Below are positions 3,671 to 6,133 of a DNA stretch of 64,000 bases, in pieces; position 1 is the stretch's first letter; each line of letters opens with the position of its first letter. Under the pieces are notes generated by a model. It did no database searches and was not told where the DNA came from. It saw nothing but the letters and a program-made list of their open reading frames with translations. The translations under genes and the position numbers were made by a program. Origin of the DNA: Candidatus Woesearchaeota archaeon (lineage in GTDB: Archaea > Nanobdellota > Nanobdellia > Pacearchaeales > GW2011-AR1); the NCBI GenBank assembly GCA_964530945.1, contig CAZHCJ010000002.1:14899-78898 (forward strand). Reading direction: 5' to 3'.

Positions 3671-6133
3671 ATGGCTAAAAAATCAGATTATACAGGGAAA
3701 GACATTCATGTTTTAGAAGGGCTTGAAGGTGTTCGAAAACGTCCTGCAATGTACATAGGGGGAACGGGCAAAGACGGATTGCATCACATGATTTACGAGG
3801 TGGTGGATAATGCTGTAGATGAAGCTCTTGCGGGATATTGCAAAAAAATTCTTGTACGTATAAACAAAGATGGAAGTGTAACAATAGAAGATGATGGTAG
3901 GGGAATCCCTGTAGACAAACATCCTAAGTTGAAAATTCCTGCTGTCGAAGTCGCACTAACTAAGCTTCATGCAGGGGGAAAATTTGATAAAAAATCTTAT
4001 GAAATATCTGGAGGTTTGCACGGTGTTGGTATAAGTGTTGTTAATGCCTTGTCCAAGAAACTTGTTGTGGAGATTAAACGTGATGGGAAAATATACAGGC
4101 AAGAGTATAGGCGCGGAAAAAGAGAGAACGCACTGAAACCAGTGGGAAAAACAAAAGAGACAGGGACTAAAATTACATTCTGGCCAGATGAAGAGATTTT
4201 CTCAACACTGAAATTCGATTACCTAACTCTTCAAACACGTCTACGCGAAATAGTCTTCTTAAATGCGGGTTTGAAAATTTTGTTGGTTGATGAAGAAAAA
4301 AAGAAGAAAAAAGAGTTCTTTGCTTCTGGAGGATTAATAGAATTTGTTAAGTGGATAAACAAATCAAAAGATGTTTTACATAGTAAACCAATTTATTTTA
4401 AAAAAGTAGAAGGAGATAATGTTGTAGAAGTTGCAATCCAATACAATAATTCTTATCAGACAAATATATTTGGTTTTGTTAACACTATAAACACTGTTGA
4501 AGGAGGGACGCATGTATCTGGATTTAAATCTGGTTTAACCAGGGTAATAAATGATTATGTGAAGCGTAAGAATCTTCTTAAGACAGGCTCGCTCCATGGA
4601 AATGATGTTCGCGAAGGAGTTACAGCTATTATTAGTATAAAGATGAAAGAGCCCCAGTTCGAAGGACAAACTAAAACCAAATTGGGAAATAGTGAGATGA
4701 ACGGTATTGTCAATTCAATAATTACTCAATCATTGGGAGAGTTTTTTGAGGAAAATCCGAGCATTGCTAAGAAAATAACTTCCAAATCTATAGATTCTGC
4801 TAAAGCGCGTTTGGCTGCAAAAAAAGCCAAAGATCTTGTAAGAAGGAAGAACGCCTTTTCTCTTGGCGGCTTGCCTGGAAAACTTACGGATTGTTCAAGC
4901 AAAAAATCTGATCGCTCAGAAATTTATATTGTAGAAGGAGAAAGTGCTGGAGGTTGTTTTTCTGGAGAAACGAAGGTTGCTCTTACTGATGGAAGAGATA
5001 TTTCTTTTAAACAACTTGTTAAAGAAAATAAAGAAGGAAAAAAGAATTTTGTTTACACAATAATGAGAGATGGAAAATTAGGTATAGAGGAAATAAAAAA
5101 TCCAAGAATTACTAAAAAAAATGCTGAAGTAATTAAAATAATATTGGATAATGACGAAGAGATAGTTTGTACACCAGACCATAAATTTATGTTAAGAAAT
5201 GGAAATTATAAAGAGGCCGAACATTTAACGAAAAATGATTCTCTTATGCCTCTATATAGAAAACACTCTAAAATAGGGGAAAATATAACTATAGAAGGTT
5301 ACGAAATGGTACTTGACTCTAAAAGAAAATGGATATTTACCCACATGTTGGCAGACGAATACAATCTCCGAAATAAAATAGATGATAAAAAACAGATGTT
5401 AGAAGCAGTAAATGAATATAATCATAAAATAAAAAAAATCTTAAAATTAAAAAAGAAGATTGATGTTTATGATATGGAAATTCCAAATACACATAATTTT
5501 GCTCTTTCCTCTGGTGTTTTCGTGCATAATAGCGCAAAGATGGCGCGAAACAGAGAAATCCAGGCGATATTGCCATTAAGAGGAAAAATTCTTAATGTTG
5601 AAAAATCAACACCTGTAAAAGTTTTTTCAAACACTGAAATTGCGAACCTAATTACTGCAATAGGTGCGGGCGTAGGGGATGAATTTAATTTAGATAAAAT
5701 AAGATACAATAAAGTAGTCATCATGACTGATGCCGATGTTGATGGAGAGCATATCAAAACTCTGTTGTTAACCTTCTTCTTTAGGTTTATGCCTGAACTT
5801 ATTGAAAACGGGCATATTTATGTTGCTTTGCCTCCTTTGTATAGGATTAGGAAAGGTAACAAGGACAAATATGTTTACTCGGATAAAGAATTAGAAAAAG
5901 TTAAGAGCAAGCATAAAAATGTCAAAGTTACACGCTTCAAGGGTTTAGGAGAGATGAGTTCTAATCAGCTTTGGGACACGACAATGAATCCAAAAACCCG
6001 TAAAATCAAGAAGGTTTACATTGAAGATGCTGTTGAAGCAGATCAAACATTCAGTATGCTCATGGGGAGTGATGTCCAAGCCAGAAAAGAATATATTCAA
6101 GAAAATGCACAGGAGGCGACTTTAGACGTTTAA
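3671..6133 (+). CDS. gyrB: DNA gyrase subunit B, interrupted by a mini-intein (extein about 628 aa)
   Basis: GHKL ATPase N-terminus ([18 protein letters not shown]), Toprim EGESAGG|..|[17 protein letters not shown] and C-terminal [11 protein letters not shown]; 820 aa is about 190 aa longer than an intein-free GyrB. Confidence 0.92.
   Translation: [820 protein letters not shown]
4955..5530 (+). mobile_element. mini-intein (192 aa) inserted in the GyrB Toprim motif EGxSAGG^S
   Basis: Begins with Cys right after EGESAGG ([10 protein letters not shown], block A), has a TPDHKF block B and terminal ...[15 protein letters not shown], followed by +1 Ser (SAKMAR); too short for a LAGLIDADG endonuclease domain. 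Confidence 0.8.

Follow-up and report, generated by a model that had tools for sequence, protein, structure and literature searches.

The Ssp GyrB intein of Synechocystis sp. PCC 6803 is 435 amino acids (aa) long, starts with CFSGDT, and is reportedly the first intein in which an HNH motif was described (Dalgaard et al. 1997). An engineered Ssp GyrB mini-intein of 156 aa, in which the endonuclease domain is deleted, shows >90% splicing in E. coli (PMC3620165, Table 1), and a GyrB mini-intein of 123 aa in Desulfonema ishimotonii reportedly clusters with those from candidate phyla, Archaea, and Cyanobacteria (PMC6390638). The gyrB intein allele has been recorded in 6 Halobacteria, 19 Bacteria including Cyanobacteria, and 1 other member of the Euryarchaeota (Soucy et al. 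2014; PMC4071816), and 61 intein-containing GyrB sequences were taken out of an archaeal gyrase data set (Villain et al. 2022; PMC9348778). Here we describe a 192-aa insert in the DNA gyrase subunit B gene (gyrB) of a Candidatus Woesearchaeota archaeon, located in a 64,000-nucleotide stretch of contig CAZHCJ010000002.1 (assembly GCA_964530945.1, positions 14,899 to 78,898; hereafter the window). We put the probability at about 0.9 that this insert is a class-1 mini-intein of the known gyrB allele (Ssp GyrB type), situated between Gly428 and Ser of the Toprim motif. This reading is based on its anatomy, family membership, predicted fold, in-silico excision, and its deletion relative to full-length alleles.

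The gyrB precursor gene (coordinates 3671–6133; all features are on the forward strand unless indicated) is composed of an N-extein, the intein, and a C-extein, and encodes 820 aa followed by a stop codon. It was identified from the list of open reading frames (ORFs), from TIGR01059, and from Pfam matches to HATPase_c, DNA_gyraseB, Toprim, and DNA_gyraseB_C domains. The precursor scores 903.8 bits against the TIGR01059 gyrB equivalog, and because this model has 639 positions the protein is ~190 aa overlong, as a first-pass annotation made from the sequence alone had recognized. The same annotation had placed a 192-aa insert at 4955–5530 with the flanks of an intein (Cys after EGESAGG, a TPDHKF block B, a THNF...VFVHN end, then Ser), and on reading the DNA both coordinates and motifs prove right to the base. 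The N-extein (428 aa; 3671–4954) ends within the Toprim motif E422-G-E-S-A-G-G428 (Glu codon 4934–4936), which aligns with ...VVEGDSAGG of Mycobacterium tuberculosis GyrB; Glu422 is presumably the catalytic Toprim glutamate. Read codon by codon, the intein (4955–5530) occupies exactly 576 nucleotides in frame, starting with the Cys1 codon TGT (4955–4957) directly after EGESAGG and ending with the His191-Asn192 codons CAT-AAT (5525–5530). The Ser+1 codon AGC (5531–5533) follows, and this nucleophile is the first residue of the C-extein (200 aa plus stop; 5531–6133). Without the intein, the gyrB sequence over the insertion point is GAAGGAGAAAGTGCTGGAGGT joined directly to AGCGCAAAG.

Identification of the insert as an intein is borne out by three curated models, all of which match the 192-aa segment above their cut-offs: PF14890 (67.4 bits, cut-off 35.8; E=1.6e-18), TIGR01445 (50.9 bits, cut-off 24.5), and TIGR01443 (23.8 bits, cut-off 15.6; residues 170–192). 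The N-terminal splicing region (residues 1–100; 4955–5254) contains block A with Cys1 and block B, T73-P-D-H76 (5171–5182), within the TPDHKF sequence at residues 73–78, and keeps the conserved columns including C1, D65, N66, C72, T73, and H76. The C-terminal splicing region (residues 144–192; 5384–5530) contains block F (5459–5506; VYD173...TH180NF, with the Asp173 codon at 5471–5473) and block G (SGVFVHN; 5510–5530) at the C-terminal end of the intein. All features of a class-1 intein are present, namely Cys1 in block A, TxxH in block B, Asp and His in block F, the terminal His-Asn, and Ser at +1. Blocks B, F, and G of the segment are also similar to those of the solved NrdJ-1 and DnaE inteins.

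An AlphaFold2 model of the intein, with an input alignment of 16 sequences, predicts a HINT fold (predicted TM-score, pTM, 0.72), with predicted local distance difference test (pLDDT) values of 84–96 for residues 1–100 and 86–94 for residues 161–190. When this model is compared with the PDB by Foldseek, there are 62 matches at E≤1e-3; almost every one of the 50 best listed is an intein or a HINT domain, led by the Npu DnaE, Ssp DnaB, and Mtu RecA inteins (E ~1e-9 to 1e-8; target-normalised TM up to 0.84). In-silico removal of residues 429–620 yields a 628-aa GyrB that aligns without gaps over the junction with the solved M. tuberculosis GyrB, so that excision is precise, as the first-pass reading implied, and the Toprim domain is contiguous again. 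The Pfam Toprim match correspondingly changes from 51.9 bits in the precursor (profile positions 13–94) to 70 bits in the protein spliced in silico (positions 1–94 of 96).

Relatives of the intein are numerous. A genome scan using one genome per species found a relative in at least 599 genomes, and the best 80 of the at least 599 loci were analysed; these loci were used because the 192-aa query, when searched against proteins, matches fragments of ≤333 aa only and missed the window's own protein. That protein search identified 64 relatives, mostly GyrB fragments with some in GyrA, RadA, and dCTP deaminase, and one of them (P0042) is named by NCBI as an 'intein-containing DNA gyrase subunit B [Nanoarchaeota archaeon]'. 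Complete inteins could be delimited at 64 of the best 80 loci, and all are inserted at EG[DENS]SA[GAS]G/S (the slash marks the insertion point). They fall into two size classes, 43 being 430–434 aa and 21 being 148–249 aa in length, and their splicing domains are 60–75% identical to that of the window intein over the 150 residues compared. The window intein retains 68 of the 70 positions conserved in ≥90% of these 64 allelic relatives, including every catalytic one (C1, T73, H76, D173, H180, H191, N192, and S+1).

Alignment with the longer class suggests how the window intein arose. Two segments of it are collinear with the 431-aa form: one spans residues 1–142 (ending ...EYNLRNKI) and the other extends to the C-terminal end. 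Between them ~239 aa are absent, with the junction at ~5380/5381. The part that is missing opens in the full-length alleles with RHHIDFNKLNNNPxN...H, followed by a helical region of ~200 aa. HNH_3 (PF13392) is the sole recurrent family in these middle regions, matching 23 of 26 at E≤0.1 (best E=1.7e-5), and from these matches together with the visible motif the endonuclease of the full-length alleles is predicted to be of the HNH type, an assignment with good though not complete support. The window intein itself has no Pfam HNH match at E≤1, and profile searches gave no LAGLIDADG family match in it or in its full-length relatives. The first-pass annotation was thus correct in calling the insert a mini-intein too small for a full LAGLIDADG endonuclease, whereas the LAGLIDADG ancestry implied there was rejected. 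With 192 aa, neither an HNH domain nor the pair of LAGLIDADG motifs (blocks C and E) of a bifunctional form, and ~33–45 non-splicing residues still present, the window copy has the composition of a mini-intein, and judged from these alignments it appears to be a deletion derivative of a ~431-aa HNH-type bifunctional intein.

The deletion is placed within the window's own lineage because the four closest exteins among the best 80 loci (L032, L015, L022, and L061; 75–77% identity) all carry full-length inteins. Break points vary among the 21 mini forms, lying after ITIEGYEM, after FTHLL..YNL, or beyond an HNH core that is kept while the following region is lost, and because the end points differ, endonuclease decay has been repeated independently many times. 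Three inteins of 239–249 aa (L028, L041, and L016) retain the HNH core and have lost the ~200-aa helical region rich in Lys, Glu, and Trp behind it; with such intermediates, the endonuclease region therefore decays in modules and not just as a whole.

The gyrB intein allele occurs in hosts of two domains. Those of the best 80 loci are mostly metagenome-assembled genomes (MAGs) labelled Woesearchaeota, Pacearchaeota, or Nanoarchaeota, with many from Candidate Phyla Radiation (CPR)/Patescibacteria and Omnitrophota, and a few others. Identity to the window intein averages 70% where the extein is ≥62% identical (n=33) and 68% where it is <60% identical (n=31); the Spearman correlation between intein and extein identity is 0.30, over exteins that span 48% to 76% identity. 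Two copies from Saccharibacteria (L051 and L074; extein ~50–55%) are as close as those of the nearest archaea. Since intein similarity hardly follows extein similarity, the pattern fits a horizontal spread of the allele across domains, by homology and not convergence. The intein also differs from its extein in composition (27.4% versus 36.8% G+C; 19% versus 30% G+C at third codon positions, GC3), and its G+C content is at the 1.7th percentile of 576-nucleotide intervals of the 64-kb stretch. The first-pass annotation had offered convergent or horizontal acquisition; the horizontal part is in agreement with an intein identity that barely tracks that of the extein, and a convergent origin was rejected, the relatives at 60–75% identity being plainly homologous. 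Its statement that the insertion site matches a known GyrB intein site finds support for cyanobacteria in published descriptions (PMC2794532, PMC4071816) and is unconfirmed for mycobacteria. GyrB inteins are listed for Actinobacteria in general (PMC4760082); the classical mycobacterial gyrase intein (1am2, a Foldseek match) is in GyrA, and the mention of mycobacteria probably refers to this Mxe GyrA intein.

The same intein sequence family is found in unrelated exteins, including GyrA, RadA (P0016), dCTP deaminase (P0049), and phage proteins. NF052663, the NCBIfam model for an 'intein-containing RtcB family protein', gives the window intein 142.6 bits (E=2e-41), and hence a very similar intein lineage exists in RtcB-family exteins. 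Viral contigs of IMG/VR contain 213 relatives of the family in several extein contexts. Many of these (among loci L081–L160) share the context DHPxxG/CFTGDT...VHN/SKDxxDA, whose extein we guess to be a phage terminase large subunit. In two viral-labelled contigs it is GyrB that is broken at the same Toprim site, by inteins of 432 aa (L081) and 283 aa (L091). GenBank phages have distant relatives only (27–40% identity), in helicase, NrdA, dCTP deaminase, and DNA polymerase genes.

Two peculiarities distinguish the window copy, and these are the only ones: a fully conserved remnant of the region preceding the HNH motif, and a substitution at position 33. The remnant consists of ~33 residues (110–142; 5282–5380) that lie directly upstream of the HNH motif in the 431-aa alleles with which it aligns, and corresponds to the remnant linker that the first-pass annotation had thought possible. 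All 15 of its family-conserved positions upstream of the junction are intact, and residues 111–140 are identical to those of a full-length allele from a Nanoarchaeota MAG (L015) at 28 of 30 positions, compared with 69% for the N-terminal splicing region. At least four further mini-inteins (P0002, L007, L001, and L010), whose break points differ, keep this module too. It is modelled with low confidence (pLDDT 42–54). On the simplest reading, its conservation means that the region was under strong constraint and was cut only recently, at a module boundary where a break is tolerated. Position 33 (codon 5051–5053) is Val in the window and Cys in all 64 GyrB-allele relatives (NFCYTI to NFVYTI); it is Thr in the GyrA- and RadA-allele relatives, and C33V is probably a tolerated change.

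Several observations weigh against the interpretation of the insert as a splicing mini-intein that has lost an HNH endonuclease. Residues 101–155 are modelled at low confidence, and C33V may have an effect on splicing. In individually scanned full-length inteins HNH_3 scores 19 and 18 bits, below its cut-off of 24.8, and a profile of the full-length endonuclease region has no match among solved structures. Comparison with the Ssp GyrB intein covers only the last six residues and Ser+1, taken from the paper, and that the window's GyrB is actually spliced is something we infer from its sequence.

An alternative is that the insert is a relic that no longer splices, with gyrB a decaying pseudogene or GyrB working with the insert in place. 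The Val that replaces the Cys of all 64 relatives, an endonuclease already gone from a decaying element, and the low-confidence middle part of the model are all compatible with it. However, the 820-codon reading frame is intact, all catalytic residues and 68 of 70 conserved positions are kept, the exteins are well conserved (as the TIGR01059 score indicates), and Thr occupies position 33 in relatives from other exteins. A 192-aa domain 6 residues past the Toprim glutamate should moreover be incompatible with function, and we consider a non-splicing relic very unlikely. Least likely of all is the case that the first-pass annotation had set against its own reading, a lineage-specific GyrB insertion in which blocks A, B, F, and G would be missing. 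All four blocks are present, three curated intein models score above their cut-offs, the fold is predicted to be HINT, and the same sequence family recurs in GyrA, RadA, dCTP deaminase, and phage proteins; a non-intein insertion was rejected on the profiles, the fold, the gapless excision, and the restored Toprim domain, no point in its favour was found, and its probability is close to nil.

A different question is whether the segment preceding the lost HNH motif (residues ~101–143) has been selected for a role of its own, either by making the HINT fold more stable or by rendering GyrB maturation conditional, as a regulatory mini-intein would. Its 15 intact family-conserved positions, the 28 of 30 identities to L015, and its retention in four or more further mini-inteins whose end points differ speak for such a role, but the segment is wholly or partly gone in many functional-looking mini-inteins (L063, 148 aa; L066, 157 aa; P0023–P0028), has no confident modelled structure, and would be dispensable by analogy with the engineered Ssp GyrB mini-inteins that splice without an endonuclease region (PMC3620165). 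Recent deletion and strong ancestral constraint explain the conservation equally, and a selected role is unlikely. A more elaborate version, which strikes us as quite improbable, would have the module be a selected accessory kept independently in several deletion lineages and, together with C33V, splicing regulate gyrase post-translationally in a DPANN archaeon. We therefore retain the interpretation as a class-1 mini-intein, with the remnant left over from deletion.

If the insert is such an intein, splicing would follow the established class-1 pathway. Cys1 would carry out an N-S acyl shift at the Gly428-Cys1 bond, aided by Thr73 and His76 of block B, and Ser+1 would attack the resulting thioester in a trans-esterification. 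Cyclisation of Asn192, aided by His191 and by Asp173 and His180 of block F, would release the intein, and an O-N shift would form a native peptide bond, so that the product is a GyrB of 628 aa whose Toprim site is whole. Since the insert begins 6 residues after the Toprim glutamate, no activity is expected of the unspliced protein; that splicing is efficient we infer from a gene that is both intact and conserved. The engineered Ssp GyrB mini-intein splices (PMC3620165), and removal of the middle domain therefore need not prevent splicing in this family. The proposed origin is a ~431-aa bifunctional intein with an HNH endonuclease, from which an internal deletion of ~239 aa would have removed the HNH core together with the helical region that follows, leaving the ~33 residues upstream of the HNH motif as a linker. 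With the HNH core gone no further homing is expected, and the ability to home should have been lost; the window copy would then be an immobile relic, still able to splice, late in the homing cycle.

The host is an archaeon, as the first-pass annotation had it, and is DPANN-like. Its nearest GyrB exteins among the best 80 loci are from DPANN-labelled MAGs; a ribosomal protein L24e gene is situated just upstream of gyrB (Pfam), and the window also has Pfam matches to an IF-2 family GTPase with an EF-Tu domain-4 match (aIF5B-like) and a TCP-1/cpn60-family chaperonin, all three of which we take to fit an archaeon. An archaeal host is no surprise, the allele being common in DPANN archaea, and such an organism is a usual host for it and not an exception. 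A six-frame search of the window with the family hidden Markov model found no second intein, and an Rfam scan of the window found two tRNAs and no other RNA feature. A 96-aa ORF on the opposite strand (5467–5757) was treated as spurious because it is contained in gyrB.

Three small, tightly packed genes transcribed in the same direction are located between gyrB and gyrA (6136–6993). They encode a DUF1653 protein (6136–6378), a Lys-rich zinc-ribbon protein (6378–6734), and an 85-aa product with no family match (6736–6993). The gyrA gene is listed as 6947–9457 from a TTG start; because TTG 6947 overlaps the upstream ORF, ATG 7004 is the more likely start. GyrA is intein-free at its GQGNFG/SIDGD junction (7369/7370), a site at which relatives have a homologous intein in GyrA (CFT.DT...GIFVHN/SVDGD; for example L002, 525 aa, and L068, 394 aa). 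Partial copies of the GyrA-site intein are present in L039, L048, L055, L059, and L078.

For annotation, the gene is best described as encoding an 'intein-containing DNA gyrase subunit B', with a mature protein of 628 aa and not 820. The window copy provides a snapshot of the homing cycle of invasion, fixation, and endonuclease decay, in an allele that abounds in DPANN archaea and CPR bacteria and has undergone many independent deletions; the flat similarity of the inteins over their hosts fits exchange between ultra-small organisms of two domains. As splicing tools, natural Ssp GyrB-type mini-inteins that use Ser+1 might have practical value as well. Archaeal GyrB inteins and splicing engineered Ssp GyrB mini-inteins are already published, and general knowledge of inteins is unchanged; what is refined is the type of the lost endonuclease, predicted to be HNH, and the identity of the remnant linker as a defined pre-HNH segment.

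Among known systems, the Ssp GyrB intein shares its host protein with the window intein, and its last six residues, GVFVHN, and Ser+1 are identical (PMC2794532). A literature search found no papers that join a GyrB intein with HNH or contain CFSGDT. The window copy is a natural counterpart of the engineered Ssp GyrB deletion; an S11 split intein has also been engineered from Ssp GyrB. It differs in having an archaeal host, in a natural deletion that keeps ~33 pre-HNH residues (192 aa in all), and in Val at position 33, where the allelic relatives have Cys. The full-length alleles of ~431 aa, exemplified by those of the Nanoarchaeota MAG L015 and the Woesearchaeota MAG L032, share the site EG[DE]SAGG/S and have splicing regions 60–75% identical to that of the window intein, but keep RHHIDFNKLNNNPxN and the ~200-aa helical region where the window copy is without ~239 aa. 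The Desulfonema intein and the 148–249-aa forms are endonuclease-less and in GyrB like the window copy; their deletion end points differ from its own, and the natural GyrB mini-inteins therefore appear to derive from independent events. The halobacterial gyrB allele (PMC4071816) is likewise an archaeal GyrB intein, from a different archaeal lineage. The Mxe GyrA intein of Mycobacterium xenopi (1am2; Foldseek rank 50) is, like the window copy, a natural HINT-fold mini-intein in gyrase, but it occupies another site in the other subunit and is distant in sequence.

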